Origin: a virus
Lineage: Duplodnaviria; Heunggongvirae; Uroviricota; Caudoviricetes
Direction: 5' to 3' (one strand)
Length of the DNA stretch: 43,118 nt
IMG/VR virus record: IMGVR_UViG_2541047857_000011
Shown: piece after piece, positions 4,051 through 36,684 of the stretch
How positions within the stretch are numbered: the first letter of the stretch is position 1
How the letters are laid out: every line of letters starts with the position of its first letter
Made by a program: the position numbers and the translations under genes
The notes under the pieces: generated by a model
Told to the model about the DNA's origin: nothing
What the model saw: the letters and a program-made list of their open reading frames with translations, nothing else
Database searches by the model: none

Positions 4051-4537
4051 AACATCCGCCCGTGTTTATTATATCACTCAAAGCAATAATTGTTGACTAT
4101 AGATTTTTTATCTAAATCAGCATGGTTGCAGGTACATACTCAAGTAAGCCACTCAAGAAAATAACGTAAACTCAATAGTGGCAGCGTCACAAACTTTGGA
4201 AATTATGTCTTATATTTGCAGTTTATTTTAGTGAATAATTGAGATAAATGACATTATTTTACATCCTCAATAATTCAGGCTGTAAGAGGACGGCAAATAC
4301 ATTCATAATTATCAGGGGATGAACATTCAGGAAAGTAGTCAGTATCGTCAACTTTTTCTTTTATCACTACATGAAGATTTCGTGTAGATACTCCCATCTC
4401 TGCCACTTCTCCCCTCACATTTACACTGGAGCTAAACCCGCCGATTGCGCTACAATGCCCGCCCTTAAAGTGGGGGCACTCCCCTAACCGCTTCATCAGG
4501 TGAAGCGGCTCTGACCTGTCATCAGAACGAGAGAATT

Positions 4538-5899
4538 ATGTTTAAACCGGAACTCCTTTCCCCGGCGGGAACGCTGAAAAATATGCGTTACGCTTTCGCT
4601 TATGGCGCAGATGCTGTTTATGCGGGCCAGCCGCGTTACTCCCTGCGTGTACGCAACAACGAATTCAACCACGAAAATCTTCAGCTCGGCATCAATGAAG
4701 CCCACGCGCTGGGGAAAAAGTTTTATGTCGTGGTCAACATTGCACCGCACAACGCCAAGCTGAAAACCTTTATCCGTGACCTGAAACCGGTGGTGGAAAT
4801 GGGGCCGGATGCGCTGATTATGTCCGATCCAGGGCTGATTATGCTGGTGCGTGAACACTTCCCGGAAATGCCAATCCACCTCTCGGTACAGGCTAACGCC
4901 GTAAACTGGGCGACGGTGAAATTCTGGCAGCAAATGGGTCTGACCCGCGTGATCCTCTCTCGCGAACTGTCACTGGAAGAGATTGAAGAGATCCGCAATC
5001 AGGTGCCGGATATGGAGATCGAAATCTTCGTTCACGGCGCGCTGTGCATGGCCTACTCCGGTCGCTGCCTGCTCTCTGGCTATATCAACAAGCGCGACCC
5101 GAACCAGGGCACCTGCACCAACGCCTGCCGCTGGGAGTACAATGTCCAGGAAGGGAAAGAAGATGACGTCGGCAACATCGTACACAAGTACGAGCCGATT
5201 CCGGTGCAAAATGTTGAGCCGACGCTGGGTATCGGCGCGCCAACCGACAAAGTGTTTATGATCGAAGAAGCCCAGCGTCCGGGCGAGTATATGACCGCGT
5301 TTGAAGATGAGCACGGCACTTACATCATGAACTCGAAAGATCTGCGCGCCATCGCCCATGTTGAACGCCTGACCAAAATGGGCGTGCATTCGCTGAAAAT
5401 CGAAGGCCGTACCAAATCTTTCTACTATTGCGCACGCACCGCGCAGGTTTACCGTAAAGCTATCGATGACGCCGCTGCGGGCAAACCGTTCGATACCAGC
5501 CTGCTGGAAACGCTGGAAGGTCTGGCGCATCGTGGCTATACCGAAGGTTTCCTGCGTCGTCATACCCACGACGATTATCAGAACTACGAATACGGTTATT
5601 CGGTTTCTGACCGCCAGCAGTTTGTTGGTGAGTTTACCGGTGAGCGCAAGGGGGAGCTCGCGGCGGTAGCGGTGAAAAATAAATTCTCCGTTGGCGACAG
5701 CCTTGAGCTGATGACGCCGCAAGGCAACATTAACTTTACCCTTGAGCATATGGAAAACGCCAAAGGTGAAGCGATGCCGGTCGCACCAGGCGATGGTTAT
5801 ACTGTGTGGCTCCCGGTGCCGCAGGATCTTGAGCTAAATTACGCGCTGCTGATGCGTAATTTCTCCGGGGAAACCACGCGTAACCCCCACGGTAAGTGA
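4538..5899 (+). CDS. yegQ: U32-family peptidase-like protein YegQ (tRNA hydroxylation protein TrhP)
   Basis: 453-aa ORF whose N-terminus (MFKPELLSPAGTLKNMRYAFAYGADAVYAGQPRY...) matches E. coli YegQ as I remember it; conserved position immediately upstream of cyaR. Confidence 0.9.
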   Translation: MFKPELLSPAGTLKNMRYAFAYGADAVYAGQPRYSLRVRNNEFNHENLQLGINEAHALGKKFYVVVNIAPHNAKLKTFIRDLKPVVEMGPDALIMSDPGLIMLVREHFPEMPIHLSVQANAVNWATVKFWQQMGLTRVILSRELSLEEIEEIRNQVPDMEIEIFVHGALCMAYSGRCLLSGYINKRDPNQGTCTNACRWEYNVQEGKEDDVGNIVHKYEPIPVQNVEPTLGIGAPTDKVFMIEEAQRPGEYMTAFEDEHGTYIMNSKDLRAIAHVERLTKMGVHSLKIEGRTKSFYYCARTAQVYRKAIDDAAAGKPFDTSLLETLEGLAHRGYTEGFLRRHTHDDYQNYEYGYSVSDRQQFVGEFTGERKGELAAVAVKNKFSVGDSLELMTPQGNINFTLEHMENAKGEAMPVAPGDGYTVWLPVPQDLELNYALLMRNFSGETTRNPHGK

Positions 5900-5983
5900 T
5901 TAATTTCGATTATTTTTCCCGGATGGAAAATTCTTAGAAACCGATCACATACAGCTGCATTTATTAAGGTTATCATCCGTTTC

Positions 5984-6070
5984 GCTGAAAAACATAACCC
6001 ATAAAATGCTAGCTGTACCAGGAACCACCTCCTTAGCCTGTGTAATCTCCCTTACACGGGCTTATTTTTT
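5984..6070 (+). ncRNA. cyaR: CyaR (RyeE) Hfq-dependent sRNA
   Basis: Sequence GCTGAAAAACATAACCCATAAAATGCTAGCTGTACCAGGAACCACCTCCTTAGCCTGTGTAATCTCCCTTACACGGGCTTATTTTTT matches cyaR as I remember it, ending in its terminator hairpin and U-tract; TATCAT -10-like element at 5971-5976. Confidence 0.85.
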
Positions 6071-6071
6071 A
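6044..6071. repeat. Prophage att core, ogr-proximal copy, overlapping the cyaR 3' end
   Basis: AATCTCCCTTACACGGGCTTATTTTTTA is repeated exactly at 42446-42473 and contains the reverse complement of the 27-bp P2 att core AAAAAATAAGCCCGTGTAAGGGAGATT. Confidence 0.85.
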
Positions 6072-6133
6072 CGCGTAACACAATGAAATAAAAGGATTTA
6101 TTTCTGGTCACGTCCACACATTGACCACATCGA

Positions 6134-6158
6134 CAAAAAAGCCCCTCGACTGAGGGGC
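6134..6158 (-). terminator. Rho-independent terminator downstream of ogr
   Basis: Hairpin GCCCCTC-GACT-GAGGGGC followed on the minus strand by TTTTTTG. Confidence 0.6.
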
Positions 6159-6171
6159 TTCCTGTTTGTAA

Positions 6172-6390
6172 TTACATCCACATAATTTGCTGCCCTGACG
6201 GCAACGGGTGCGGTCTTACGGCGTGGACTTCTCCCGGCTTCACGATGTATCGCTGTACCGACTCATAAGTGATGAATGTGGCGCTGCAATTCACGTTCTG
6301 ACACTGGTGATAACGCTCTTTTGTCGTGTCAGTGATATAGCGGCTTGTACGCGCATGTGCGGCATGCTGGCATAAAGGACAATGAAACAT
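6172..6390 (-). CDS. ogr: P2 Ogr late-gene transcriptional activator (zinc finger), 72 aa
   Basis: Translation MFHCPLCQHAAHARTSRYITDTTKERYHQCQNVNCSATFITYESVQRYIVKPGEVHAVRPHPLPSGQQIMWM matches P2 Ogr. Start set at the ATG at 6388-6390, downstream of the track's longest ORF. Confidence 0.9.
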   Translation of the reverse strand: MFHCPLCQHAAHARTSRYITDTTKERYHQCQNVNCSATFITYESVQRYIVKPGEVHAVRPHPLPSGQQIMWM

Positions 6391-6471
6391 CGCGAGCACC
6401 TCTTCCGGTTTTGTTGATGGTGCCATTTTAGTTAATTTATCCTTATAAAACAAACAGATAAATAAATTACA

Positions 6472-7635
6472 TCACTCATCATCTTCTGTTTCGTACTCCA
6501 CATCAGAAAGCCTGACCTCAAGCTCTAAGGACGTCGTGAAGCCGCTATTATTCAGAAAATGTGTCACCTTAGTGATTGTCCAGTCCTGCTCGTCTATGAC
6601 GCGCTTAAAGCCTGATACTTTAACCGGTGTTTCCGTGTAAATATCAGCACGACCGGTAGCCAGGCTGATGGAGAACTCCGCAACGCCCCGTTGCAGTTTA
6701 TCCCACTTCGCCTGAGCGGCACGCATGGCCTGTGCTTTCGTGGCATATACCGTGGTCAGGGCAAAAACGTTGTCAGCCTCACCGGCCATGTATTCACCTT
6801 CGCGCGCTTCCGGTACTCTTGGCGCTTTCTTCTGCCTGACCGGTTTTGCTTTCGGGTGCTCCAGTGCGCGCAGGTGTTTTTCTTTCTTTTTGCGTTTCAG
6901 TTTTACCTTCTGCTTTTGCGGCTTCGGGTCTTTGGTGTGTAACCACTTTGCCGTTACGCCGGTATAGGCTCCACGGTCAGCAATCGCAAAATGATGGCGG
7001 TCGCCGTCGCTGCGGGTGATGGTGACCTGCGGGATTTTTTTACCGCTGGCCGTCACCCCCTGCCCCGCTTTGAGAAACAGCAGTTTTCCCATTTTTACCG
7101 ACACCTCACCGCCGTTGCGTTCTGCAAGACGGGTCAGGAATTTCGCATCAGACTCCTGCGACTGGTCGATGTGCGGAATTTTAATTCCGGCCAGTGACGG
7201 AGCGATACTGGCTTCCAGCCTGTTACGGGAGGCAATCGCCTCAACAATCGCACCGAGCGTGGTGTCATGCCAGGAGCCTTCCCGGCGGGAATTGAGCGTC
7301 CCGCGAAAATCTGCACTCCGGGCGCGGATGGTGACCACATCCGGCGCGCCCCGGTGTTCAACCTCATCAACGGTAAATTTCCCTTTGCATACCAGGGCAA
7401 AACCTTTCCAGCCGATATACACCGTCAGGACAGCGCCACGAACCGGCAGCCCGACCTGCCCGTCGGCATCGTTCAGTTCAATATCAAGCTGGTCAGCCTC
7501 AAAGCCCCGGTTATCCGTCAGGGTCATGCTCATCAGACGGTCGCTGATATTGCCGGTAATATCCCTGCTGTCGAGCATCAGCATGTAATCCGGCGTCAGC
7601 GTACTGCCTGCATCAAATGTCAGCGCATCCAGCAT
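6472..7635 (-). CDS. D: P2 gpD-like tail protein
   Basis: 387 aa, same size and position as P2 D between U and ogr. Confidence 0.85.
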   Translation of the reverse strand: MLDALTFDAGSTLTPDYMLMLDSRDITGNISDRLMSMTLTDNRGFEADQLDIELNDADGQVGLPVRGAVLTVYIGWKGFALVCKGKFTVDEVEHRGAPDVVTIRARSADFRGTLNSRREGSWHDTTLGAIVEAIASRNRLEASIAPSLAGIKIPHIDQSQESDAKFLTRLAERNGGEVSVKMGKLLFLKAGQGVTASGKKIPQVTITRSDGDRHHFAIADRGAYTGVTAKWLHTKDPKPQKQKVKLKRKKKEKHLRALEHPKAKPVRQKKAPRVPEAREGEYMAGEADNVFALTTVYATKAQAMRAAQAKWDKLQRGVAEFSISLATGRADIYTETPVKVSGFKRVIDEQDWTITKVTHFLNNSGFTTSLELEVRLSDVEYETEDDE

Positions 7636-8114
7636 TATCCCGCCCCCGTCATACCCGTGAATTTAGTCGCCATACTGCCAGCCTTACCGATGAGCGATTC
7701 CGCCTGTTTACCGATATCGCCATAAAGCGCGGCCAGTGATTCATCAACGCGGGTGAGCGACAGCGTAAAATCAATTTTTCGGGGTGTGCCGTCTGCAAAG
7801 AAAATACTCCCTGTTTCACTCACCCTGCTGATGACATACATGCCGTAAATCATGCCGGTGCCATCCAGCAACGGCCACGCCCGGCCTTCCTCTGCCATCA
7901 GTCTGAGCGTGGTCATCGTCAGCTTTCCGCCGGTCAGTTCTGGATAAAGCACACCGGCAAGCGTAATGTTTTCCTCACCCACACCGAGAAACTGGTAGGC
8001 ATCCCGTTTGCCGATACGGGAATTTGACGGCCAGCGATAATCTGATTCACGCTGCATGGTCTGGTGTGGCAGCGTCTGGCGCATAAAAACAAACATACCT
8101 AACGCGAGCATCAT
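7635..8114 (-). CDS. U: P2 gpU-like tail protein
   Basis: 159 aa, in P2 order T-U-D; stop overlaps the D start. Confidence 0.85.
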   Translation of the reverse strand: MMLALGMFVFMRQTLPHQTMQRESDYRWPSNSRIGKRDAYQFLGVGEENITLAGVLYPELTGGKLTMTTLRLMAEEGRAWPLLDGTGMIYGMYVISRVSETGSIFFADGTPRKIDFTLSLTRVDESLAALYGDIGKQAESLIGKAGSMATKFTGMTGAG

Positions 8115-8128
8115 TTTTCGTCACCTCC

Positions 8129-10576
8129 TTAACCGTCATGCATCATGCTGGCACGGGCGCGCGCACGTTTATCCCGCTCGTATTTTTCGAGCGCATCCTG
8201 TAACTGGCGGTCAAGCTGTGTCCCCGGCGCAGTACCACCCGTCAGGCTGATGTGATATTCGTTTTTACTCTGGTCCACATAAGAGCGGCCAGCCGGTGCC
8301 GTGACCGGCTGATAAGCTTGATAGCCTGCATAAGAGCTGGTCGCCGGAATATAACCACCGGTGCCATACGTGGCGGCATGAGTTCTGGCGGCGGTCTGGT
8401 CAAGTGTGTCTGACTCTTTGTTGATGACCCCGAGCTTTTCCAGTACCCAGTCAATGCCGCTGCGCAGTTTGTTGAACGCATTAAGCGGCAGCATCAGCGC
8501 GTCAGCCAGTGCCTGCCCGAACATGACGCCCGTGTCACGGCAACGGTTCAGGGTGTCCTGTGTGGCTTTGACCGGGGCAATCAGGTTTTTAAACCACTGC
8601 CACGCGGCCTGTAACTTTTCGCCCAGCCAGTCAAACACCGGCTTAAGTGGCGTGAACAGTTCCCCCACCGGCGCAAATGCCGCTTTCAGCCCTTCCACCA
8701 CACCGCCAAAGAATGCGCTGACAGGCTCCCAGTATTTACGGATAAGCAACGCACCGGCGACAATGGCGGCCACCACGGCCACAACCGGCCAGCTAATCGC
8801 CCCGATGGCCGTCATAACAGCACTGCCAACCGTCGTGAAGATTGCCCCCATTGCGCCTGCTGCCGCGATGATGGCATTGATGCCAGTGATAACCGGCCAG
8901 GCTACGAGGCCAATGGCACCGATGACAGCAGTCAGCGCCAGTGCACCACCGACAATGAGGCCGATGGTTGACGCCAGTGATTTGTTTTTCTGGATCCAGC
9001 CGTCGAGTTTTAACACATACTTTGTGGCCGTCTGCGTGAGCTTACGCAGTGCGCCTTCCTGCTGGTCAAACAGGTCAGTCCCCACCGCCTCATAAGCGGA
9101 CTGAAACTCCTTAAAGTCACCGCCGAGGTTGTCCTGCATGATATTTACCAGCTCGGCGGTCTTCCCGTCTGAGGCTTTAAACGCAGCGGTCAGTTTGTCC
9201 AGCTTTCCAGTTGAGGCGGCAGTCATCAGCACGGCGGCGGCTGAGCTGGCCTCCTCCCCGAAAATAGTTTTCATGTATTCAGCCTGCTGGGCAGTACCGA
9301 GCCGGTTTTTCTCAAAACTGGCCTGCATTTCTTTCAGAATGGTAAATACTGGTCGAGTATTCCCTTTACTGTCTGAGGTTTTCACGCCAAGCTCTTTCAG
9401 TGCATCCCATGCTTTTCCCGTCGGTGCCTGCAGGCGGCTTAACACGGCACGGCTTCCCGTCCCCGCCATTGAACCGGTAATTTTTGCATCATGCAGCGCC
9501 CCGACCATTGCGGCGGTTTCTTCAATGCTGACACCAGCATTTTTTGCCACAGGTGCGGCATAGGTCAGCGCATCGCTCATGCCATCAAAATCGGCGGCGG
9601 TTTTGTTCATCGTCATGGAGAGAACATCCCCGATATGAGCGACCTTATCGTTTGAAAGCTGAAAGGCGGATTTCATCCCCATCAGCAGGGCGGCGTTTTC
9701 TTCCATCGTGCGACGGTTCGCCAGCGCCATATTCAGCGTGACCGGCGTTGCCGCCTGAATGGCATCAACATCCCCACCGGCTTTCGCAATAATAATCTGC
9801 GCACCGGCTGCATCATCTGCCGAGGCTGCGGTATTGTCGCCGAGCTGGCGCGCCTGCTTGCGTAGTGCAGCCATTTCGGCGGAGTCTTTTGCCACACCGA
9901 GCACAGCCTGCAATTCTGAGTTTTTCTGCGCAAACTCATAACCGGGCATCAGCAACTTAACTCCGGCCATCGTTCCCGCAGCAGCAATCCCCACACCGGC
10001 AGCGCCCACTGAGGCCATATTTCCGGCCAGTTCCTTTCCGGCCTGATAACGCTGTTTTACTGCGTTAAGTTTTGCCTGTTGTGCACTGACACGCGCCAGC
10101 GCGTCACGCTGACGGTTAAGCTGTGCGGTGGTTTCACTGATACGGTTTTTCAGTCCCTGCTCATCATGTGCAAGATTGCGGGTATTAATTCCCACAGCGG
10201 CCAGTTCCCGCTGCTGGCGTTTAATGGAATCTGTCAGGCGGTTATATTTCGCCTGTAAGTCCTCCGCCGCACGCTTTGCGGATTCCAGCACTTTCGCCTG
10301 AGCACGGGTCGGACGTTCAGTGTTTTTAAACTGTGTGGCAAGGGCTTCGGCTTCCTGCCGTGCCTTTTCAAGTGCATGACCAGTCACGGCAAGCTGTGCG
10401 CTGGTCTTGCGAAATCCCTCAATACGGGATGCGTGACCGTTCAGCTCGCGCAGTGATTTTTGTGTTTCCCGGATATCCCCCGACAGCGACTTACTCGCTG
10501 TGCGGATGGATTTAAACGGGCGGGATGCCTGGTCAACAGCCCTGAGCAATACCTGTAATTTTACATTGTTACTCAT
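8129..10576 (-). CDS. T: Tail tape measure protein (P2 gpT-like)
   Basis: 815 aa, Ala/Gly-rich with coiled-coil N-terminus and hydrophobic middle segments; follows E/E'. Confidence 0.9.
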   Translation of the reverse strand: MSNNVKLQVLLRAVDQASRPFKSIRTASKSLSGDIRETQKSLRELNGHASRIEGFRKTSAQLAVTGHALEKARQEAEALATQFKNTERPTRAQAKVLESAKRAAEDLQAKYNRLTDSIKRQQRELAAVGINTRNLAHDEQGLKNRISETTAQLNRQRDALARVSAQQAKLNAVKQRYQAGKELAGNMASVGAAGVGIAAAGTMAGVKLLMPGYEFAQKNSELQAVLGVAKDSAEMAALRKQARQLGDNTAASADDAAGAQIIIAKAGGDVDAIQAATPVTLNMALANRRTMEENAALLMGMKSAFQLSNDKVAHIGDVLSMTMNKTAADFDGMSDALTYAAPVAKNAGVSIEETAAMVGALHDAKITGSMAGTGSRAVLSRLQAPTGKAWDALKELGVKTSDSKGNTRPVFTILKEMQASFEKNRLGTAQQAEYMKTIFGEEASSAAAVLMTAASTGKLDKLTAAFKASDGKTAELVNIMQDNLGGDFKEFQSAYEAVGTDLFDQQEGALRKLTQTATKYVLKLDGWIQKNKSLASTIGLIVGGALALTAVIGAIGLVAWPVITGINAIIAAAGAMGAIFTTVGSAVMTAIGAISWPVVAVVAAIVAGALLIRKYWEPVSAFFGGVVEGLKAAFAPVGELFTPLKPVFDWLGEKLQAAWQWFKNLIAPVKATQDTLNRCRDTGVMFGQALADALMLPLNAFNKLRSGIDWVLEKLGVINKESDTLDQTAARTHAATYGTGGYIPATSSYAGYQAYQPVTAPAGRSYVDQSKNEYHISLTGGTAPGTQLDRQLQDALEKYERDKRARARASMMHDG

Positions 10577-10720
10577 TCGTGTTTCCGCTTCGCCGGAGCG
10601 CCTTTTCGCGCCATGTGATGAGTTCGATCAGGCTCATGGGATACAGTTCTGATGGCGGCCAGTGAAATATCACTGCCACATCCGCCATCAGGTCATCGAC
10701 CGAGAGATTTTTCGGGAACG

Positions 10721-10996
10721 TTACTGCACCGAGTTCGGCGACAAAAAACCGACCACCTTACCGGCCAGCGCCACAAGGTCAGGCAGTTCCAGCGCGGCGA
10801 CTTCCTGCTCGGTCAGCATCGGTGCCGTCATGCGCGGCAGCACCTTAATCAGTGCATCGACTTCGGAGTTCGCGACCGCAGCCAGACTGACACCGCGCAG
10901 CGTCCCGGCATTAGGTTTCATCAGCGTGACCTGTTCGATAACCTGCTCACCACGCTTGACCGGATTGTCCAGGGTAATCACATTTTCTTTGTTCAT
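10721..10996 (-). CDS. E: Tail assembly chaperone gpE (E' made by -1 frameshift)
   Basis: 91 aa, position between FII and T; slippery heptamer near its 3' end. Confidence 0.85.
   Translation of the reverse strand: MNKENVITLDNPVKRGEQVIEQVTLMKPNAGTLRGVSLAAVANSEVDALIKVLPRMTAPMLTEQEVAALELPDLVALAGKVVGFLSPNSVQ
10742..10748 (-). other. Programmed -1 ribosomal frameshift site (TTTTTTG) for the E+E' fusion
   Basis: Minus-strand GGT TTT TTG within the last codons of E, the canonical slippery heptamer position for the P2 E/E' and lambda G/GT tail chaperones. Confidence 0.7.
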
Positions 10997-11052: not shown

Positions 11053-11571
11053 TCACAGGCCGATATTGCGGCGGTGTTGCTCCAGCCGGTCGACGCCGTT
11101 CACCTTCTCAATCATGTTGATGGTGTCGATTTCGACCAGCTCCTTACCGTCCATCGTCAGCCGGAAATAGGTGCAGACCACGGAGATTTTCGACTCGGTG
11201 TCTTCTCCCTGTTTGCCCTCGCCGGTGTCGATTTCTTTCTGACGTCCACGCATGACCACCTCGACGGCCACCGTTTCGCCGGTATCGTCGCGCTGGTAAG
11301 AGCCTGCAAAACGAATCGGTACGGAATCCACACCGGTTGCGGCGTAAAGCTCCCAGATAACCGAATCCGGGAAGCCACCGAGCGACCACTCCATTGACAG
11401 CGCATCGTCATCAAGGCCGAGGTCTACCGGTGCGCTGCCGTTCATCCCCGCACCGCGATAGTTTTCGAGCTTACGGGTCAGTTTTGGTAGCGTGACGGAC
11501 TTCGCGACGCCCTGATAGCTGTAGCCGTTCAGAAAGACGTTCATTAACTTGAGTTTGCGCGGCATTGCCAT
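11053..11571 (-). CDS. FII: Tail tube protein (P2 gpFII-like)
   Basis: 172 aa, directly downstream of FI. Confidence 0.85.
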   Translation of the reverse strand: MAMPRKLKLMNVFLNGYSYQGVAKSVTLPKLTRKLENYRGAGMNGSAPVDLGLDDDALSMEWSLGGFPDSVIWELYAATGVDSVPIRFAGSYQRDDTGETVAVEVVMRGRQKEIDTGEGKQGEDTESKISVVCTYFRLTMDGKELVEIDTINMIEKVNGVDRLEQHRRNIGL

Positions 11572-11583
11572 CGGTCAGGCTCC

Positions 11584-12774
11584 TTAATTGCTGTTAACCG
11601 AGGTGACCAGATTTGCCAGGTATTTATCGGTAATACGCTGGCGCAGGGTCAGGTTTTCAAGAGGAGGCACCGGTGTATAGTCGTAGTCGATATACAGTTT
11701 TCCGGCCTTGAGGGTTTCCGCATCGTTGGATTCTTCGCTGAACCAGCAGGTCGCATCCACGATATAGCCGTTTGTTTTCAGCTCACGGAATTTGGCATTG
11801 ATGCCGTCAACGATGTCGCGAATCAGCGTTGCGGTGATGGGCTTGTCCACCGCCCACATGTGCGCCTCAGCCATCGTGTCGGCCATCACCTGCGCGGTGC
11901 GGGTGTAGTTTTCAAAGAGGAACAGCGGGTCATCAGAGCAGGTACGGTTACCCCAGAATCGGAAACCGTCGCGGCGAATCAGCGTAGTGACGCCTGACTC
12001 GTTAAGCAGGTCAGCATCGGTGCCGGACTCCTGCAAATCCCAGAATACAGATGCGCTGATGCCGGTAACACCGTTTACCCCGACGTTGGACAGCGTTTTA
12101 TGCCAGCCCTGCTCCTGGTCGATTTTAGCGCGCAGACCCAGCGCACGGGCGGTGGCATACGCGGTGGCGGTGGTACTGGTGACCGTATCCCATGCGAGGA
12201 AATCCGGCCAGATGACCATCAGCTCACGCTGGCTGAAATTCTGGCGGTAGGCTTTCACCTCGGAAATGGTCTTACAGCCCCATGCGCTGATATATCCGAA
12301 AGCGCGCAGCTTCTGACAGACGGATGCCAGTGCAACAGCCACCTCTTTGGTATCCAGTCCCGGCACACCGAGAATACGCGGTTTAACACCGGTTACCGAC
12401 TCCGCCGCCAGCAGGGCTTTTAGTCCGGTGTACTGACCGTTTTCGTCGGTGGTGCCGATGATATTGGAAACGGTCTGCGCGAGTTTCGTTTCCTCGTCAT
12501 CACCGGTGCCGTCTTCCACGCGCACGACAACGGTGACCGGTTTTGACTGGTCAGCGATGGCCTGCAACGATGCCGCCAGCGTGCCTTTTTTACCGGCCTT
12601 TGCAATTGCGCTTTGCACATTGGTAATCAGCACCGGTTTATTGAGGGGGAAGGTTTCCGCATCCGCATCGCTGGCCGTGCAGACCATGCCGACAATGGCA
12701 GTGGATACGGTGGAAATGACGCGGGTGCCGTCGTTAATCTCCAGCACCTGCACGCCATGATGATAGTCACTCAT
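11584..12774 (-). CDS. FI: Contractile tail sheath protein (P2 gpFI-like)
   Basis: 396 aa, same size as P2 FI; first gene of the FI-FII-E-T-U-D operon. Confidence 0.9.
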   Translation of the reverse strand: MSDYHHGVQVLEINDGTRVISTVSTAIVGMVCTASDADAETFPLNKPVLITNVQSAIAKAGKKGTLAASLQAIADQSKPVTVVVRVEDGTGDDEETKLAQTVSNIIGTTDENGQYTGLKALLAAESVTGVKPRILGVPGLDTKEVAVALASVCQKLRAFGYISAWGCKTISEVKAYRQNFSQRELMVIWPDFLAWDTVTSTTATAYATARALGLRAKIDQEQGWHKTLSNVGVNGVTGISASVFWDLQESGTDADLLNESGVTTLIRRDGFRFWGNRTCSDDPLFLFENYTRTAQVMADTMAEAHMWAVDKPITATLIRDIVDGINAKFRELKTNGYIVDATCWFSEESNDAETLKAGKLYIDYDYTPVPPLENLTLRQRITDKYLANLVTSVNSN

Positions 12775-12860: not shown

Positions 12861-12898
12861 AACAACAGATAAAGAAAAGGCGGGCAATTCGCCCGCCT
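12861..12898 (-). terminator. Rho-independent terminator between the cargo cassette and the FI late promoter region
   Basis: Hairpin AGGCGGGC-AATTC-GCCCGCCT followed on the minus strand by TTTCTTTATCTGTTGTT. Confidence 0.55.
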
Positions 12899-12953
12899 GT
12901 CCTGATTTGTACTCACTCATTTTCCGCCTGACAATTTACATAGCCCAAATGCT

Positions 12954-12977
12954 ATCAAATCTGACAGTCTGCTTTGA
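12954..12977 (+). repeat. Cassette-flanking site A (core CTGACAGTCTG)
   Basis: ATCAAATCTGACAGTCTGCTTTGA; about 21/23 identical to site B in direct orientation; 16-bp exact inverted match to site C (12958-12973 vs 15392-15407). Confidence 0.7.
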
Positions 12978-13104
12978 GCGAAAAGTGGACATTAGAGTTA
13001 CAAAAGCAAGTTTAAATCATCCAAAATATTACAATGTCCTTATCTATCTGATATCGTTATGATAAAAAGCTCCTGAATATAATCGATAGTAGGTGGTTAT
13101 TTCC

Positions 13105-13482
13105 ATGAAATCAATTTTAGAGGTTTTTACTCAAGGAAATACTAAAGAAAAACTGGCTGTTATCGCCGATCTCACAACCATTGCGGGAATATCGATTGCA
13201 ACTATTATTGCTGGTTTGTTAACCCTAGTTGCAAAAACAGATAAACTAGATGTTGGAAATCTGTTTGGAGTTGTCATAATATCTCTGCTCGGATTGGCTG
13301 GTGTTTGCTGTTTTGTGGCCTTATTTATTTGGGTTATAACCCAAATGTCTAAACCATGGGGAACACCTCGGGGGGTTCAGCCCTTAGTTAAGTGTGCTAT
13401 TTCCCTTATCTTTATCTGTATGTTTTTGCTGGCTGTCTTTACATTTTATGAGTTTATTTCTTCGATGAGCATACGCTATTGA
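13105..13482 (+). CDS. Small integral membrane protein, ~125 aa, three predicted TM helices (prophage cargo)
   Basis: AGGTGG 8 nt upstream of the ATG at 13105; TATAAT-like element upstream; three long hydrophobic segments; AT-rich; opposite strand to the flanking late genes. Confidence 0.65.
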   Translation: MKSILEVFTQGNTKEKLAVIADLTTIAGISIATIIAGLLTLVAKTDKLDVGNLFGVVIISLLGLAGVCCFVALFIWVITQMSKPWGTPRGVQPLVKCAISLIFICMFLLAVFTFYEFISSMSIRY

Positions 13483-13504
13483 ATATAAAATCAGCCCCCA
13501 TAAC

Positions 13505-14089
13505 TTAAAAGAGACCTTCTATATCGACTTCAATGCCCAAATAACGGACTGTGCTTTCCAGTTTCTTATGGCCCAACAGAAGTTGGATCCCCCGGAGACT
13601 CTTGGTTTTCTTGTAGATTAAGTAAGGTTTTGTTCTTCTCATGGAATGTGTGCTGTACAGCGAATCTTCGAGACCAAGCTTTTCTACCCACCCATGAAAA
13701 ATTCGGTTGTATTGCCGGGTTGATATATGGTGGTTAGTTCCGACCCGAGAGCGGAACAGGAAGCCTTTACTATGCCAGTTGCCGAGCTTTATCAATGCAG
13801 TAACCGCTTCCCTTGTCCCTTTGGTTATCTCAAATTGGACAGGGCTGCCGGTTTTCTGTTGCAACACCGTTGCTCTGCTTGAGACAGAACTGCCATATGC
13901 AGCATCTGATACTTTGAGTTTGACCAAATCACAGCCCCGTAGCTTAGTGTCCAAAGCCATGTTGAACAGAGCTAGATCGCGTGTTTTACCTTCCAACTCA
14001 AGTCTAATCCGGATCCCCCAGATATGAGATATCTGAAGTGGCCTTTTTTGACCGATGGTACGGTCTTTATTCCACGGTGACGTTTTCAT
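13505..14089 (-). CDS. Small tyrosine site-specific recombinase, ~194 aa (FimB/FimE-sized, catalytic core only)
   Basis: Start ATG 14087-14089 has AGGAGA 8 nt upstream. Catalytic signature present: R in TKLRGCDL, K in QQKTGSP, HSMRRT (H-x-x-R), LLGH, and Tyr in STVRYLG. No N-terminal arm-binding domain. Confidence 0.75.
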   Translation of the reverse strand: MKTSPWNKDRTIGQKRPLQISHIWGIRIRLELEGKTRDLALFNMALDTKLRGCDLVKLKVSDAAYGSSVSSRATVLQQKTGSPVQFEITKGTREAVTALIKLGNWHSKGFLFRSRVGTNHHISTRQYNRIFHGWVEKLGLEDSLYSTHSMRRTKPYLIYKKTKSLRGIQLLLGHKKLESTVRYLGIEVDIEGLF

Positions 14090-14195
14090 ATTCAAATCTC
14101 CTGCAATGTGGGAGATTTGAGTATGGTTGTCTCTCAAGAGCGAAAATAAGTCAACTATCACTAGTTGTTGCGCATGTACGTATTCTGTCAATTAA

Positions 14196-15038
14196 TTATT
14201 GACAATCATCAATTCTGGAATGATCAAAATCATCATATCGAATTATAGTCTGGTTGACTGTATCTATTGTTGGTGTCATTTCTGTTATAATATCCTGATA
14301 ACCTAAAGAGTTAAATACATTTACTAAGGCCTCACACCGAAGGGCCGTAGCAATTACAAAATTATAAATTGCCAGCCGTTTATTTTCTTGTTTAACTGCA
14401 AGAATGAATTCGATAGCAGTATTTTCATCACTTTGGATTGCATTATATAGAGATACTATATTTACCATATCATCAGAGAATGTATGTATTGAATCACAAA
14501 GAGGAACGTAATGGGCATGATAGTGTGTTTCCCAGCCAATTAATTCAAAAAGTTTTCTGGTTCCTGGATATTCAGGTGTATTTGGCCACAATCTATTAAA
14601 TAGATCAGTTAGTTCTTTTCCCATGCGAATCCTTTCATTTGCTGCTGGATTAGTCATTCCTTTGGATTTTAAACACTCCAGCCACCGTTTTCCATTACTA
14701 TGAACTAATTTCTTACTAGCCTTGAGTAATGCTTGTGCATTTTCGCCATCATCTATTGCTATATAAAATTGATTGGCAGCCTGTTCTATTATAACCCTAG
14801 CTAATACTTCCGATGCTGAAAAGGCTCCTATATTCAAAGAAGAGATAGCCTGATTACTAAGTTCATTCAGTACATTAAAGTACTGTAAGACCATCAATTT
14901 TTGTTCCACACCCTTTAGGTTGTCTATTTTATTTTTATGCTCCTCAAATTTTGCATGGATATATTTATTTATCGCGGCTATTTTTTTTACATCTTCGTCA
15001 AGATCAAACGGGCAACGTCCAAACAATTCTTTTTTCAT
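14196..15038 (-). CDS. Hypothetical protein, 280 aa, unknown function; co-oriented immediately upstream of the recombinase
   Basis: ATG at 15036-15038 with AGGAGA 6 nt upstream; AT-rich; no nucleotide-binding, RT or nuclease motif recognised. Confidence 0.65.
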   Translation of the reverse strand: MKKELFGRCPFDLDEDVKKIAAINKYIHAKFEEHKNKIDNLKGVEQKLMVLQYFNVLNELSNQAISSLNIGAFSASEVLARVIIEQAANQFYIAIDDGENAQALLKASKKLVHSNGKRWLECLKSKGMTNPAANERIRMGKELTDLFNRLWPNTPEYPGTRKLFELIGWETHYHAHYVPLCDSIHTFSDDMVNIVSLYNAIQSDENTAIEFILAVKQENKRLAIYNFVIATALRCEALVNVFNSLGYQDIITEMTPTIDTVNQTIIRYDDFDHSRIDDCQ

Positions 15039-15263
15039 ATATTTCTCCTGTTGTACAAGCTTCCATAAGTTGGCAGATTATACACTGAAGATTACCTATA
15101 AATAGCTGTGCGGGATAGCAGATCAGTGCAAGAAGTACAACCAAGTGAACTGTGCGTATTCAGATACCTGGCCTAACGTTCGCGATAGCCGTCCCCTGCA
15201 CGAAGCCATATATTAGATGTATTAGCTCAGACCTTATCTGACAGGTTGAGTAGGTAGAATCTA

Positions 15264-15287
15264 ATCAAAGCTGACAGTCTGGTTTGG
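15264..15287 (+). repeat. Cassette-flanking site B (core CTGACAGTCTG), direct repeat of site A
   Basis: ATCAAAGCTGACAGTCTGGTTTGG; a partial half-site ATCTGACAG also lies at 15236-15244. Confidence 0.7.
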
Positions 15288-15391
15288 ACTGTGAGTTCAA
15301 CCGATGGATGCAACACACAGCGATCTACGGACATTACTAGCATAGCTGTGTATTAATCATCGGGAAGCAGGTCAGTCCGCTCCTAGCACAG

Positions 15392-15407
15392 AGCAGACTG
15401 TCAGATT
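15392..15407 (-). repeat. Site C, inverted copy of the site A core
   Basis: Plus strand AGCAGACTGTCAGATT is the reverse complement of AATCTGACAGTCTGCT; lies ~100 bp beyond site B, just downstream of G. Confidence 0.7.
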
Positions 15408-15459
15408 AGGCTTTACTCTGTGCTATAGATACGTTAGCTCACTCCAGAGATCATACAAC

Positions 15460-15987
15460 TTATTGCGGCATTTCCGGCCATTCAGGATTTGCAGGATCCA
15501 CACGGCTGACCAGAACACTGTAGCGTTCCCATGCTTCCAGTCGGCTACGCTCATCATCTGTTGCCATATTCAGTCTGACAGAGCGTTCCAGTGGCTGAAT
15601 GATAGTTTCAGCTTCGGAAAGCAAAGCTGACTTCTGTAATTCCGCCAGTTGCAGCTGTTCGTCTGCCGTATAAATCCGCTTAATCACGGCACCATCCTTA
15701 AACATCCATTTACCTGAGTCATCAGCACGTCGGTTGGCGGTAATATCAGGAACCTCGACAACGCTAAAACCTTCAGGGTTGAGCGTTGAAGCATCTCTGG
15801 TGATGCCGACAATTATATTATTCTCATCGTAAACAATCTTTATCGTGTCTTCCTGAAAATTACTTACTTCCTCATACCAGTTTTTTCCCTCTTCGGACCA
15901 TAACCAGATAACATCAAAATTTTTTGTCAGTTGATATTGGGCAACAGTTTTTGGATTACCCGCAGTAATATTTTTTAAATGCTGCAT
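15460..15987 (-). CDS. G: Tail fiber assembly chaperone (P2 gpG-like)
   Basis: 175 aa, same size as P2 G; immediately downstream of the tail fiber gene. Confidence 0.8.
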
Positions 15988-15990
15988 AAA

Positions 15991-18726
15991 TTACACCTGT
16001 GCGACGTTATACCATGTGCCATTGATGTATTTTTGTATTGGTCTGAATACTGCGGGGTCATCACCATCGACTTCACCGACAATACCAAGCCCGGTAATTA
16101 CGTGCCCTGCTTTCTCATACATCACCCCTTTCTGCATGGTCTGGACAACACGTGTGCCAAGTCTGACATCTCTCACATAGCGGGAATCAAAGTTACCGTA
16201 ATCCGAGGGATTAACACGCCCCGTAATATTTATGGTTTTATTACTTTGAACGCTTCCGGAGACAAAGCGCATAACATGGACGCTATTAGCATAAACATCC
16301 AGATTACCATCACCATTTTGTTTAAAGCCCGTGTCATTATCACCCAAAACAATCGAATTACCGCCAAGAGCACTGGATGTTCCTATACCCAGAGCACCAT
16401 TCAATTGACCACCAGATAACGGCAGTGCACCGACATCTCCCGCTGTAGGTTTTCGCGTTGTGGTATAAAACTCAGACCAGTCAGCCTCGAATCCGTAACC
16501 GTCACGAGCAGAACGATAAAAAATACCACCGTTCTTATAATTAACGCGAAACTGGGCGGCGGGACAACTTCCTTCCCCGATATTAAAATGAAGAATTAAC
16601 GTTGATGCCCCACCAATAGTTGCGTTATAGGCTCCGCTACTCCAGTTCCATCCAACGGCTTTATCATTCGCAACGGTGTCTCCTGTTTTTCCTGAAGCAA
16701 ATGCACCAATATTTTTCGGCGTCAGGTTAATATCTGATGTTCCATCAAACGAAACGTTATTAATTTTACGGGCTGTTTTCAGCTTTGTTGCTGTCGCCGC
16801 ATTGCCGGACAGTTCACCAGAAAGGCCAGCACTGAATGTCTGTTTCGCGCCCCATGTCTGGGCTTCGTCAATGATTGGTACTCGTCTTGTTGTGATCGTG
16901 CGGCTTCCCGGATTTCCTGAAATGCGCACCATAAAAAAGCGGTAGTTGGCTTTACTTACAGTGCTGCGCCATACATGCATTGAGCGCCCCGAACCAGAAT
17001 CATCACTCGGACCGACTGAGATGTTTATCAGGTTGCCATCAATGACGCCCCAGTCCATACCGTCGGGAATGTTGGTCATATTATCAAGCCGAACGGTTAT
17101 CAGACTGCCCGGCACAAAATCGTAGGTCTGCCAGTCCAGACTGGATAGTTTTGCCACTGCGCCACCGATGCCCAGATTCAGAGGCAACGAAAAGGAGTTA
17201 TATACTTCTCGCCATTCGGTCCATTTGCTCCCGGCATAGACGCGCTCAAAAGTGCGCCCCTGTGTGGTTTCTGATTTCCCTGTGGTTGTGTAACGCTGCC
17301 AGACAGATACACCATCAAAACGCCTGATTACTTCCAGTATTCCAAGCAGTGTCGCTCCAGCGGTATCCTGCATTGGACCGTTTGACGCCTTCCCTGTAAC
17401 GCTGTAAATGCCTGGCGAAGTCAGATCATTCAAATCACCTTCGTAATAACGACATTCTGACTGATGGCCTACTCTTGACCACGGCTCCCACTGTGGGTTC
17501 TGTGCATTCCATATAGCAGAAAGGCAGCGAACATATACGTTCCCACGGCGGGTCGTATAGCGTTGCGTGCGTGAGTACCCACCACCCTCAAGAACTTCAA
17601 GGAATCCCTGACCATAACTTCCTTCTTCCGGATAGTTGCGGTCAAATGAAGCGATAGAGCCACTACTGTTTCGCCATAAACCAAGATGCTCTGCGCCTCC
17701 TAGCGTGTTCAGGTCAATAGTTGTGCTCAGGGGGCGTGTTGCAGACTGAATCTGACGCCAGTAGATCCACGGACCGTCTGAGCCATTCCAGGTGCCAGAA
17801 AGATTACGCATATAAACATTGCCAGTTCTGGTGGTATAACGCTGCATTCCGGAAAAATTACCGCCATTGAATACCTCAAGAACACCGACTGCACCGTCTT
17901 CAGGGAAATTTTTCTCCAGTGTTGCGTTGGAGGATGTGGATTTATACCAGACACCCACATAAGCCTTAACTGGACCAAATGTATTGAGATCAGCATCAAC
18001 CGGCATTTCGCCGTTGTTTTTCATAAACGTCAGGCTGGTAACACCAATATTGTCCAGAAAAGCTGATTTATCCTGGATATCTGCACCGTTCTGATTTTTC
18101 GCCAGACGTGAATTTGCGTTGTCATTTGCTGCCTTGACCGCTTTTGGCGTTGCCGCCAGCTCTTCACTGGTGCTGTTTGTTGCACTGCTTAACTGAGTAA
18201 AACCTTTTTCTGTCAGCGTGGCGTCAGGATGGCGGCGGGACTGCTCATGCTCTGCGATTTTGTCATCGACGTAATCCTGCGTCGCCATCACTGTGCTGGC
18301 ATCAATACTCAGCTCAACGGACGCCACGTTGCTGAGAATAATAACCATGCGGCAGGTCTGCGCACGTCCGGAGCCTTCAGCCAGTTCTGGCTTATAGCTT
18401 TCAGCCATGTTGGATACCGCAATCAGTGTTCCGGCATCGTCATACAGACCAAGCTCACGCATCCAGAAGCCGCCCACTTCGGGCGGTACAACCAGTTCAG
18501 CCACAATATAGTTTTTATTCTTATTATCCACACTGACTTTATTCAGAGCGTGACGCCAGACCTCATGCACCAGTTTCGTCTGACCGGCATCCGGCACCGG
18601 TAATTTGCCATTACCGTCACCCACGGCCATTGCAGACAGGTTTACTTTTTTCCCGCCGGGGACAGTGGCGGCTGCCAGCTTTGCGGCTCCGGCAGTAGTG
18701 ATAACGGTTTTAAATTTCGTGCTCAT
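15991..18726 (-). CDS. H: Tail fiber protein (P2 gpH-like N-terminus, extended repeat-containing C-terminal region)
   Basis: 911 aa; P2 H-like N-terminus (MSTKFKTVITTAGAAKLAAA...); three internal repeats carrying QRYTTRxGNVY. Confidence 0.85.
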   Translation of the reverse strand: MSTKFKTVITTAGAAKLAAATVPGGKKVNLSAMAVGDGNGKLPVPDAGQTKLVHEVWRHALNKVSVDNKNKNYIVAELVVPPEVGGFWMRELGLYDDAGTLIAVSNMAESYKPELAEGSGRAQTCRMVIILSNVASVELSIDASTVMATQDYVDDKIAEHEQSRRHPDATLTEKGFTQLSSATNSTSEELAATPKAVKAANDNANSRLAKNQNGADIQDKSAFLDNIGVTSLTFMKNNGEMPVDADLNTFGPVKAYVGVWYKSTSSNATLEKNFPEDGAVGVLEVFNGGNFSGMQRYTTRTGNVYMRNLSGTWNGSDGPWIYWRQIQSATRPLSTTIDLNTLGGAEHLGLWRNSSGSIASFDRNYPEEGSYGQGFLEVLEGGGYSRTQRYTTRRGNVYVRCLSAIWNAQNPQWEPWSRVGHQSECRYYEGDLNDLTSPGIYSVTGKASNGPMQDTAGATLLGILEVIRRFDGVSVWQRYTTTGKSETTQGRTFERVYAGSKWTEWREVYNSFSLPLNLGIGGAVAKLSSLDWQTYDFVPGSLITVRLDNMTNIPDGMDWGVIDGNLINISVGPSDDSGSGRSMHVWRSTVSKANYRFFMVRISGNPGSRTITTRRVPIIDEAQTWGAKQTFSAGLSGELSGNAATATKLKTARKINNVSFDGTSDINLTPKNIGAFASGKTGDTVANDKAVGWNWSSGAYNATIGGASTLILHFNIGEGSCPAAQFRVNYKNGGIFYRSARDGYGFEADWSEFYTTTRKPTAGDVGALPLSGGQLNGALGIGTSSALGGNSIVLGDNDTGFKQNGDGNLDVYANSVHVMRFVSGSVQSNKTINITGRVNPSDYGNFDSRYVRDVRLGTRVVQTMQKGVMYEKAGHVITGLGIVGEVDGDDPAVFRPIQKYINGTWYNVAQV

Positions 18727-21242: not shown

Positions 21243-21285
21243 GATTACTTAACTGGCAAAAAAACATCCTCACTAATTGGAGCCA

Positions 21286-22377
21286 ATGGATACACGCATG
21301 TCAGACATTCTAATTACTTATGATGAACGGAAAGATAAATTTGAGTCCTATGCCCTTACTCTTAAATCGTTATTAACCACGTTAATTCGCAATGAAAAAA
21401 TTTCAATTCACTCACTTGAATCAAGAGTTAAAACAAAAAAAAGCCTTGAAGGTAAGATTAATAAAAAGGGAAAATACAAGTCTATAGATGATATTACTGA
21501 TATCGTTGGTATCAGGATCATCACACATTATGCTGATGATGTTGATAAGATAGCTGCTATAGTTGAAAAGGAGTTCACCATTGACCAAGAGAACTCTATT
21601 GATAAAAGAACCTCAATTGCGCCTGATAAATTTGGTTACCTATCACTTCATTATATAGTAACTTTAAACTCAACCAGAACAAACTTAAAAGAATATGAAG
21701 TATATAAAAACATCAAAGCCGAATTACAAATACGATCAATCCTTCAGCATGCCTGGGCGGAGATTGAACACGACATTGGTTATAAGTCGGCCACAGGACT
21801 GCCTAATGAAATAAGAAGATACTTTTCACGCTTAGCTGGTCTTTTAGAAATGGCCGATGATGAATTTATTAAAATCAGAAAAAAGATTTCTGAACGGCAG
21901 AAAGAGGTTGCAAAAGAACTAGAGCAAGGAACTAGTGATTCAGTTTTAGATATTTTCACTTTGGATGAATTCTTAAACACAAGTCGAATTATGAGTGAAC
22001 TTTCAGAAGAGATAAAAGAAAAAACAGGAATCACAGTACATGGCCGATACAAGGATAAAGATTTGGGATACCTACTAAATGGTTTAAACCTAGCCAACAT
22101 AACTACAATAGAACAACTCAATCAAAAACTCTCACAAATGAAAAAGCAGATCGTAGATAGAATATTCTGCTTCGGAGAACCATTTATTAATTATTGCAGA
22201 GAAACCCCCATGCCAAAAGAAGCTCTTTTGAGTTATTTATGTCAAATTATCGTTGCGTTTCAAAACTCACCTTCGTTAGAATCTGAATTTAATAACAAAG
22301 CAGGTTTAAATCTGAAAAACAGCAATATCTCCGATTTTTTCTCGAATATAAGAGAAAACATAAGCACACAACCTTAG
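21286..22377 (+). CDS. RelA/SpoT-homolog toxin small alarmone synthetase with C-terminal extension (CapRel-like fused toxin-antitoxin)
   Basis: Synthetase motifs DIVGIRIITHY, YLSLHYIV and ELQIRSILQHAWAEIEHD in the N-terminal half, then a ~100-aa C-terminal domain; AT-rich; inserted between V and S on the opposite strand. Start could be ATG 21286 or 21298; the track start 21277 is TTG. Confidence 0.75.
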   Translation: MDTRMSDILITYDERKDKFESYALTLKSLLTTLIRNEKISIHSLESRVKTKKSLEGKINKKGKYKSIDDITDIVGIRIITHYADDVDKIAAIVEKEFTIDQENSIDKRTSIAPDKFGYLSLHYIVTLNSTRTNLKEYEVYKNIKAELQIRSILQHAWAEIEHDIGYKSATGLPNEIRRYFSRLAGLLEMADDEFIKIRKKISERQKEVAKELEQGTSDSVLDIFTLDEFLNTSRIMSELSEEIKEKTGITVHGRYKDKDLGYLLNGLNLANITTIEQLNQKLSQMKKQIVDRIFCFGEPFINYCRETPMPKEALLSYLCQIIVAFQNSPSLESEFNNKAGLNLKNSNISDFFSNIRENISTQP

Positions 22378-33810: not shown

Positions 33811-33926
33811 CGTTTTCACCTTTTTCAGTATAAATTTGCACACATTATTAGCAACATAATTATCAATAGTTAACACATGTAGATAAACAGCAATTTTACT
33901 ATTATGCAACAAATTAAATCAGATGT

Positions 33927-35838: not shown

Positions 35839-35923
35839 TGCGTATTACCGTGAAGGAGATCGGTGAGTAACATCGATGGAGATCGGTTCGTGTCACTTTC
35901 ACAGAACCGTTTTTAAATTACCT

Positions 35924-36673: not shown

Positions 36674-36684
36674 TGGATCCCGTA

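Follow-up and report, generated by a model that had tools for sequence, protein, structure and literature searches.

A probable three-part composite in the Z/fun slot of a P2-like prophage and a candidate recombinase family for cassette exchange

The virus record IMGVR_UViG_2541047857_000011 (43,118 nucleotides; hereafter the window, meaning the whole stretch of DNA analysed) contains a P2-like prophage with three genes between its tail genes FI and G, encoding a three-transmembrane (TM) protein, a small tyrosine recombinase and a DUF5677 protein. A preliminary description of this region, made from the window alone, took the three genes for a cassette that its resident recombinase could invert or excise at three repeats, A, B and C, sharing a CTGACAGTCTG core. 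Comparison with related loci favours another reading, to which a probability of roughly 0.6 is given here: the interval is an ordinary Z/fun cargo slot that holds a decayed composite of three units rather than an inversion switch, and the recombinase family represented in it would act on the sites, called L and R, that bound such slots.

The first unit is a stand-alone cassette for the TM protein, the second a recombinase unit of ∼730 bp, elsewhere with its own boundary sites, L' and R', and the third a DUF5677 cassette carrying, in site B, what is read as the relic of another P2-type boundary. A deletion joined the first unit to the second within a terminator loop, removing the R' site and the invariant C-terminal tail of the recombinase. 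This anatomy with its junctions, the universality of L and R and the lack of rearranged forms are observed in the sequences compared; the action of the family on L/R-type sites is inferred from them. Of the four sites expected in such a locus, only the two outer ones, common to every P2 relative, are intact. The cassette is most likely frozen, a fossil and not a switch, because its 3' site and the protein tail are lost and L' is degenerate.

Intact family members would insert, excise or exchange cassettes bounded by L/R-type sites, the P2 Z slot being one docking position, which would account for the turnover of cargo there; encoded elsewhere in the cell, they could act on the outer L and R in trans. 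That they recognise the GTCCGCT/AGCGGAC arms, ∼10 nt apart, and exchange strands in the centres is given an even chance or a little less. A larger proposal is held more tentatively, at somewhat worse than even odds: the ∼200-amino-acid (aa) Xer-like recombinases and the 24-bp L/R palindromes would together constitute a previously unnamed cassette-exchange system of Enterobacterales and other Gammaproteobacteria, similar to integrons or dif modules in plan but built from other components, with the recombinase gene placed in the loop of a cassette junction. Its sites would bound the Z/fun slot, a lambdoid hotspot after replication gene P, chromosomal arrays (e.g. after guaA) and plasmid cargo.

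Boundary sites of the Z/fun slot

The late genes of the prophage lie on the - strand, with FII (11053-11571) and the FI sheath gene (11584-12774) on one side of the interval, and the tail-fibre assembly gene G (15460-15987) and H (15991-18726) on the other. FI and G enclose 2.7 kb that correspond to the P2 Z/fun slot, as open reading frames (ORFs) and the RefSeq annotation of identical genomes agree, so that the location given in the preliminary description stands. The three genes likewise have the strands, sizes and low G+C content claimed for them (33-44% in the interval vs 53-60% in FI/FII). When the interval was searched, it proved 100% identical to Escherichia coli S88 and MS7163, and it recurs at 99.7-99.9% in ∼33 more complete genomes, many of which are of human extraintestinal or avian origin. 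Carriers annotate its genes as encoding a hypothetical protein, a tyrosine-type recombinase/integrase and a DUF5677 protein. The features of the interval are collected in Table 1.

Table 1. Features of the FI-G interval and its edges (positions in the window)
Feature	Position	Strand	Description
FI-side backbone flank	12928..12966	+	Part of the annotated 'right inverted repeat'; ends AATCTGACA; holds the first half of site A
L site GTCTGCTTTGAGCGAAAAGTGGAC	12967..12990	+	24-bp imperfect palindrome, left Z-slot boundary; cargo-specific sequence begins directly after it
Three-TM protein gene	13105..13482	+	125/129 aa, three hydrophobic segments; PHROG 4155 (function unknown), 8e-83
Fusion junction	13523..13524	.	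Illegitimate join in the loop of the TM cassette's terminator hairpin
Small Xer-like tyrosine recombinase gene	13505..14089	-	194 aa from ATG, catalytic domain only; PF00589 E=6e-17
Start-codon hairpin	14087..14125	-	15-bp stem over the recombinase Shine-Dalgarno sequence and AUG; fold -17.4 kcal/mol, z = -5.2
L' site, degenerate, GTCTCTCAAGAGCGAAAATAAGTC	14129..14152	+	5' boundary of the recombinase unit; recombinase-distal half lost
DUF5677 gene	14196..15038	-	280 aa, all-helical; PF18928 E=5e-10
Boundary relic	15238..15287	+	'Half-site' CTGACAG, site B (15264-15287) and L-like outer half; upstream of DUF5677
Spacer	15288..15374	.	87 bp, from B to the R site; part of the travelling module
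R site GTCCGCTCCTAGCACAGAGCAGAC	15375..15398	+	24-bp imperfect palindrome, right Z-slot boundary; part of the annotated 'left inverted repeat'
G-side backbone hairpin	15385..15428	.	TAGCACAGAG, 24-nt loop with site C, CTCTGTGCTA; fold -18.5 kcal/mol

The repeats themselves are as first described, A and B forming direct repeats and C a perfect 16-bp inverted copy. Exact copies of CTGACAGTCTG start at 12961 (+), 15271 (+) and 15394 (-), with a fourth at 34537 (+); these four matches compare with 0.51 expected in the window, and none of 100 shuffles gave as many. A (12954-12977) and B agree at 21 of 24 bases, and their likeness reaches 49 nt at 71% (12928-12976 vs 15238-15286) when the 'half-site' is included. 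A and C belong to a 33-nt inverted repeat (82%) around the perfect core, and B and C to one of 28 nt (75%) with a separation of 84 nt. The fourth copy (34537-34547) was considered as a link to the second P2 hotspot and rejected: it lies in GC-rich coding sequence inside replication gene A, and the window has no L/R sites elsewhere. Since no L/R-type site adjoins it, it is taken as coincidental.

A and C are universal slot boundaries of P2-like phages and not a property of this cassette; the two related palindromes L and R lie there within conserved, inverted backbone flanks. In GenBank records for P2-EC58, P2-EC67 and P2-EC31 (AJ512683, AJ512685 and AJ512677), available since 2004, these places carry annotated repeats, a 'right inverted repeat' of 91 nt and a 'left inverted repeat' of 113 nt, on either side of a single unrelated ORF without a recombinase. 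When the window is aligned with these three phages, backbone identity passes through A and C and ends a few bases inward. The FI-side flank is more than 90% identical to theirs despite the unrelated cargo. A wider sample, drawn from a scan of IMG/VR and from GenBank phages, comprised 63 complete Z regions with 35 unrelated cargo clusters of 788-5837 bp. All 63 have an L site (consensus GTCTGCTTTGAGCGArrAGCGGAC), preceded in the backbone by AATCTGACA, and an R site (consensus GTCCGCTyyTGGCACAGAGCGGAC), followed by TGTCAGATT.

Across the 35 cargo types column conservation is at least 90% in the FI-side flank and ∼70-100% across both 24-bp sites, except for 2-3 variable positions in each, and falls to ∼35% directly inside. 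The recombinase is found in the cargo of the window and in no other of the 35 cargo types. The preliminary description had named, as an observation that would refute its switch, the occurrence of the repeats at the same backbone positions in P2 relatives lacking the recombinase; A and C occupy exactly these positions in every Z region sampled, whatever the cargo.

Site C (15392-15407) straddles the outer end of the R site and the backbone flank TGTCAGATT, and the G-side hairpin in whose loop it lies is kept in all P2 relatives compared. Multi-cassette Z regions also hold internal sites, for instance an R and an L separated by 19 nt in locus L047. In L the half AGCGGAC is retained despite its imperfect pairing with the outer half GTCTGCT, a hint of selection on sequence rather than pairing. 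An apparent purine/pyrimidine complementarity between the inner halves of L and R, noticed by eye, proved inconsistent and was dropped as a sign of pairing covariation. Reading of the sequence found no T-run following either site. In a passage of a review that cites Nilsson 2004, the inverted repeats around fun are said to enable site-specific recombination (PMC8987985), and the first connection of A and C with such recombination is supported.

Rearranged forms and the travelling module

A switch run by the resident recombinase would predict inversion of the whole cassette (A×C), inversion of a ∼100-bp promoter segment (B-C) or excision (A×B). The repeats are real and non-random, the catalytic residues of the enzyme are present, and B and C form inverted repeats just upstream of DUF5677, a plausible place for a promoter switch. 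Such a switch is nevertheless very improbable given what the genomes hold. All 35 E. coli genomes with the full cassette align to the window as a single colinear piece at 99.7-100%. The related cargoes among the 63 Z regions, 65 pairs in all, never lie in opposite orientation, and a search of 5,426 complete E. coli genomes, 2,064 of them with P2-like flanks, for a synthetic A×B deletion junction gave no contiguous match. Assemblies show the majority state, so that rare inversion or excision would escape these searches.

The protein argues in the same direction, having lost its tail and 3' site. It resembles the FimB/FimE invertases, with which it was first compared, in consisting of ∼200 aa of catalytic domain only, but scores 20.6 bits against a cut-off of 222 for the corresponding NCBIfam model (NF007371), and no segment was found in both orientations as a Fim-type switch would have it. 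Two further variants of the cassette contain insertion sequence (IS) elements. In these carriers, NZ_CP173533 (locus L004) and NZ_CM160072 (hit H14), the insertions are an IS21-like ISEc12 just ahead of site B, after the equivalent of 15232, and an IS3-family element within the cassette.

Site B belongs to a module that travels without the P2 backbone. A lambdoid prophage (L005) has the recombinase gene, DUF5677, the 'half-site', B and the spacer at ∼89% identity, beside replication gene P and a pair of genes for an ATPase and an HNH endonuclease; there the recombinase is a pseudogene and DUF5677 is intact. The same module is found at 96.6% in a Buttiauxella metagenome-assembled genome (L020) with no P2 genes nearby. 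Both are homologous to the window from 13523 onwards, L005 as far as 15375 and L020 as far as 15398, and the spacer is kept (about 89% and 96.6%, respectively) up to the equivalent of 15375. Site A is absent from both loci and the CTGACAGTCTG core of C is missing, leaving B without an exact inverted CTGACAGTCTG partner in either, contrary to what a switch would require. A locus with DUF5677 alone (L021) is without B and keeps the 'half-site'. B and the 'half-site' can be read as the relic of another P2-type slot boundary, that is, a 49-nt diverged copy of the FI-side flank with the outer half of L.

The TM gene has a separate history. IMG/VR locus L086 has an 856-bp Z cassette, bounded by the same L site, whose cargo consists of this gene (99% identity) and nothing else; the window is homologous to L086 from 12892 to 13524. 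This homology ends one base from 13523, where that of the recombinase module in L005 and L020 starts. Judged by these alignments, 12991-13523, including the TM gene, is the remnant of a separate cassette, broken off in the loop of its terminator. Two independent cargo breakpoints were observed in terminator-hairpin loops, directly after AAAAGAGACCTTCTATA and directly after GCCGCCCCGGAGGG, one being the fusion junction at 13523/13524 and the other lying in the cargo of L036/L048. Hairpin loops may be favoured points of illegitimate joining in such hotspots.

DUF5677 is also cargo, separable from the recombinase. The two genes are co-directional, 106 bp apart, and are found side by side in three places, L005, L020 and the window, an arrangement that would fit a single two-gene system, for example a defence or regulatory one, with the recombinase as effector or switch. 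In Bacillota, DUF5677 genes are enriched beside serine recombinases and predicted to be co-transcribed with them (PMC12632615). Such a functional pair is nonetheless very improbable, about as much as the switch. Each gene occurs without the other, DUF5677 at L021, where homology to the window ends at 14136, and the recombinase in nearly all its other contexts; in L005 DUF5677 has outlived a recombinase pseudogene. The degenerate L' between the genes has 11 of 24 mismatches to the L consensus, has the same form in L005 and L020, and accounts for the linkage: the two travel together because the site between them is dead. At E up to 0.1 none of the three proteins had a PADLOC match, and NCBIfam and PHROGs suggested no defence role or other function for them beyond 'integrase'. 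When a Bacillota DUF5677 gene was tested, it did not prove to be one of the genes giving defence (PMC12632615).

The recombinase family and its sites in other replicons

The recombinase of the window matches PF00589 with 62 bits against a cut-off of 27. This copy retains R51, K79, H148, R151, H174 and Y183, which do not vary in the family alignment and whose roles are assigned by analogy with XerD. The preliminary description was thus right about the catalytic residues. The recombinase as a whole is not intact. The protein ends in ...GIEVD-IEGLF, whereas 16 homologues of 72-92% identity end in an almost invariant ...GIEVDDALEISESIEV; the family-invariant tail DALEISESIEV is replaced by IEGLF. 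More than 800 other E. coli homologues all align only from nt 19 of the window gene. The C-terminal end is chimeric because the fusion junction cuts into the end of the gene. The R' site that follows the stop codon in 12 of 14 other distinct contexts with an intact gene is missing 3' of the gene in the window.

A profile of the family finds the catalytic domains of XerD (8e-6) and XerA at E ∼1e-5, its closest solved relatives. Assignment to XerC/XerD themselves was rejected (NCBIfam, 42.5 bits against a cut-off of 335 and 22.9 against 330), as was an integron integrase (TIGR02249, 17.9 against 265; NF011946, 17.8 against 435). The family is large: of the 8,000 candidates scored, the maximum for the search, at least 7,988 clusters pass E ≤ 1e-5. 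Enterobacterales, Idiomarina, Cycloclasticus and others contribute the 120 best matches, which share 72-95% identity with the query. A structural model from AlphaFold2 was of low confidence (predicted local distance difference test score 64) and was not used. The hairpin over the start codon is kept in 11 contexts and shows two compensatory pair changes in a Providencia copy (L006); by analogy, it looks like the translational occlusion of some transposase genes.

In other replicons the gene always lies in a unit of ∼730 bp that runs from an R'-type site and a hairpin through the recombinase gene and a second hairpin, which buries its ribosome-binding site, to an L'-type site. Such units are found where two cassettes meet, in prophages, islands and plasmids. 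At 12 of 14 distinct intact loci a hairpin (CAGGGCTGC...GCAGCCCTG) begins 9-12 nt past the stop codon and runs into TGCCAnnnGCGGA[AC], which matches the distal 14 nt of the R site; a homologue of 58% identity has a hairpin of other sequence followed by GGCCAGAAGCGGA. An L-type site lies ∼42 nt upstream of the recombinase start, beyond the hairpin over the ribosome-binding site, and reads GTCCCTTATGAGCGAGGAGTGGAC in the orientation of the window; homology between contexts stops directly after it. In 11 contexts conservation collapses just outside L' and R'; the gene-proximal half-sites do not change, and the distal halves depend on the neighbour. The recombinase gene thereby fills what is, in ordinary junctions, a loop of 16-20 nt between R and the next L. 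The bounding of the unit by L/R-type sites at cassette junctions makes its enzyme a candidate for cargo exchange.

Junction hairpins of the ordinary kind divide genes in L020, L021, a lambdoid-type prophage remnant of E. coli 042, an island of ATCC 25922 and multi-cassette Z regions, and an IncFII plasmid locus has two L/R-type sites. Cassettes in these arrays lie in both orientations. L/R sites number 24 per 100 kb at recombinase loci, 3.6 at control viral loci and 0.03 in shuffles. A scan of viral contigs with CTGTGCCANNNGCGGAC gave 111 matches at loci not already fetched, 86 of which are attributed to chance; only the 25 full palindromic sites were used. Rfam, applied to the window and the array loci, has no family for the hairpins, the CyaR small RNA being its sole hit.

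In L102, a lambdoid IMG/VR contig (1917-7320), a recombinase unit with flanking R-type sites stands between an OLD-family nuclease gene and a pair encoding an ATPase and an HNH endonuclease. It shares with L005 the position after replication gene P, and in L005 DUF5677 replaces OLD as the neighbour; the two represent one locus with its cargo swapped. No recombinase gene lies within 10 kb of the L/R-bounded array that directly follows guaA in L021 (Bacterium BS0013, 4217-10730), whose cassettes encode DUF5677, a PLD-family nuclease, an AAA_33 kinase and a DJ-1 family protein. In the same Buttiauxella array (L020) as a recombinase unit, a small serine resolvase gene (2164-2787) has an R-type site 22 nt past its stop codon. 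Recombinases of a second kind may exploit L/R arrays or be carried along in them.

L and R could instead be structural or transcriptional boundary hairpins, or microhomology, with cargo turned over by homologous recombination in the flanks and illegitimate joins, and with the recombinase a mere cargo relic of an integrative element. This is the strongest alternative, though an unlikely one. Both sites are small hairpins, the conserved flanks of ∼90-110 bp on either side permit homologous exchange between P2-like phages, the two mapped breakpoints fall in terminator loops and not at L or R, and most slots are without a recombinase. These points do not explain why the same 24-bp sites are found at the edges of cassettes in unrelated replicons with no flanking homology in common, such as a lambdoid prophage, islands, the IncFII plasmid and the guaA locus, nor the retention of AGCGGAC in L without pairing and the missing T-runs, nor why the recombinase unit ends exactly in half-sites.

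Several observations weigh against the preferred reading, in which the family acts on L and R. The link between enzyme and sites is one of association. No clean cassette-sized polymorphism with junctions in site centres was found, the sole segment shared between cargo types (L036/L048) breaking elsewhere. Every cassette is bounded by such sites, so that a site beside the recombinase gene is partly expected. No recombinase lies near 62 of the 63 Z regions or some arrays (L021), and a family member is present in only 869 of the 5,426 E. coli genomes (16%). A single simple attP×attB event would fit poorly with the different centres of L and R. Illegitimate recombination also plays a part, since some breakpoints are found at terminator loops and not at L/R. 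As to novelty, Nilsson et al. (2004) may already have described some of this wider pattern.

Known systems and other features of the prophage

Cassettes of this type and their inverted repeats are already known, and the three-gene cargo of the window is annotated but unstudied. The P2 Z/fun cassettes (Nilsson, Karlsson & Haggård-Ljungquist 2004; AJ512677-AJ512685) share with it the FI-G position, the inverted repeats and foreign AT-rich cargo, from which it differs in being a three-unit composite with a recombinase gene. No description of L/R sites, of this recombinase family or of their association was found in the searchable literature, although the P2 papers of 2004 and 2007 may hold part of it, and the accessible texts name no enzyme for the fun/Z inverted repeats.

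Integrons are similar in their promoter-poor cassettes of 1-2 genes in arrays, in separating palindromes that are imperfect, conserved in their outer stems and mismatched at the centre, and in the use of a tyrosine recombinase, which here is the putative enzyme. The present family, in contrast, has ∼200 aa with a catalytic domain only and is not IntI; L and R read GTCCGCT...AGCGGAC, without GTTRRRY/RYYYAAC boxes and without an Rfam match; and the recombinase gene is placed inside a cassette junction rather than at the end of the array, with cassettes in both orientations.

The Xer/dif modules of Acinetobacter plasmids (pdif modules) also lie between paired, oppositely oriented short core-type sites with two inverted arms and a short centre, and XerD and XerA are the nearest structures to the window recombinase. 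The dif/pdif sites are 28 bp long and unrelated in sequence to the 24-bp L/R. The enzyme of the window, unlike the Xer proteins, lacks the N-terminal DNA-binding domain and is encoded by the element rather than being a host housekeeping protein.

The movement of accessory and defence genes through fixed hotspots of P2-like phages is an open question, and a 2026 survey describes the mechanism of cargo swapping at P2/P4 hotspots as unresolved (PMC13586616). The recombinase family gives a testable candidate enzyme and reduces the question to one protein of 200 aa and two 24-bp sites. If it does act on them, the site-specific recombination that was proposed in 2004 for P2 would have its missing enzyme, and the rapid swapping of defence genes between unrelated mobile elements a mechanism. 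The locus in the window is itself probably a fossil, the opposite of the first interpretation, and its value is that of a pointer to the candidate enzyme and sites.

The prophage in the window is defective. Its replication gene A (33927-35873; a 648-aa ORF matching Pfam Phage_GPA) is cut by an IS21-family element with istB at 35924-36673 and istA at 36685-38226 (affected region 33927-38226), by which replication has probably been lost. The P2-type integrase at 41357-42366 (+) is split into overlapping ORFs of 231 aa (Int_N and the start of the catalytic domain) and 105 aa, which is consistent with a frameshift in a decaying prophage.

Two further positions have cargo-like genes. The second P2 hotspot, between Q and A, contains a gene for a 644-aa DUF7380 protein (31978-33912, -) that matches the PADLOC candidate system PDC-S39 (1e-84), and no L or R sites flank this hotspot. 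On the strand opposite to the surrounding late genes, 21277-22377 (+) encodes a 366-aa protein with a RelA/SpoT domain (PADLOC PDC-S33, 1e-16), which may be a toxic small alarmone synthetase or a CapRel-like defence gene at a third cargo position. At the other side of the window, the CyaR/RyeE small RNA (5982-6067, +; Rfam 100.7 bits) lies ∼400 bp ahead of gpD (6472-7635), the first P2-like late gene, and is itself just preceded by a peptidase U32 gene; together, the small RNA and the peptidase gene may mark the end of the prophage.

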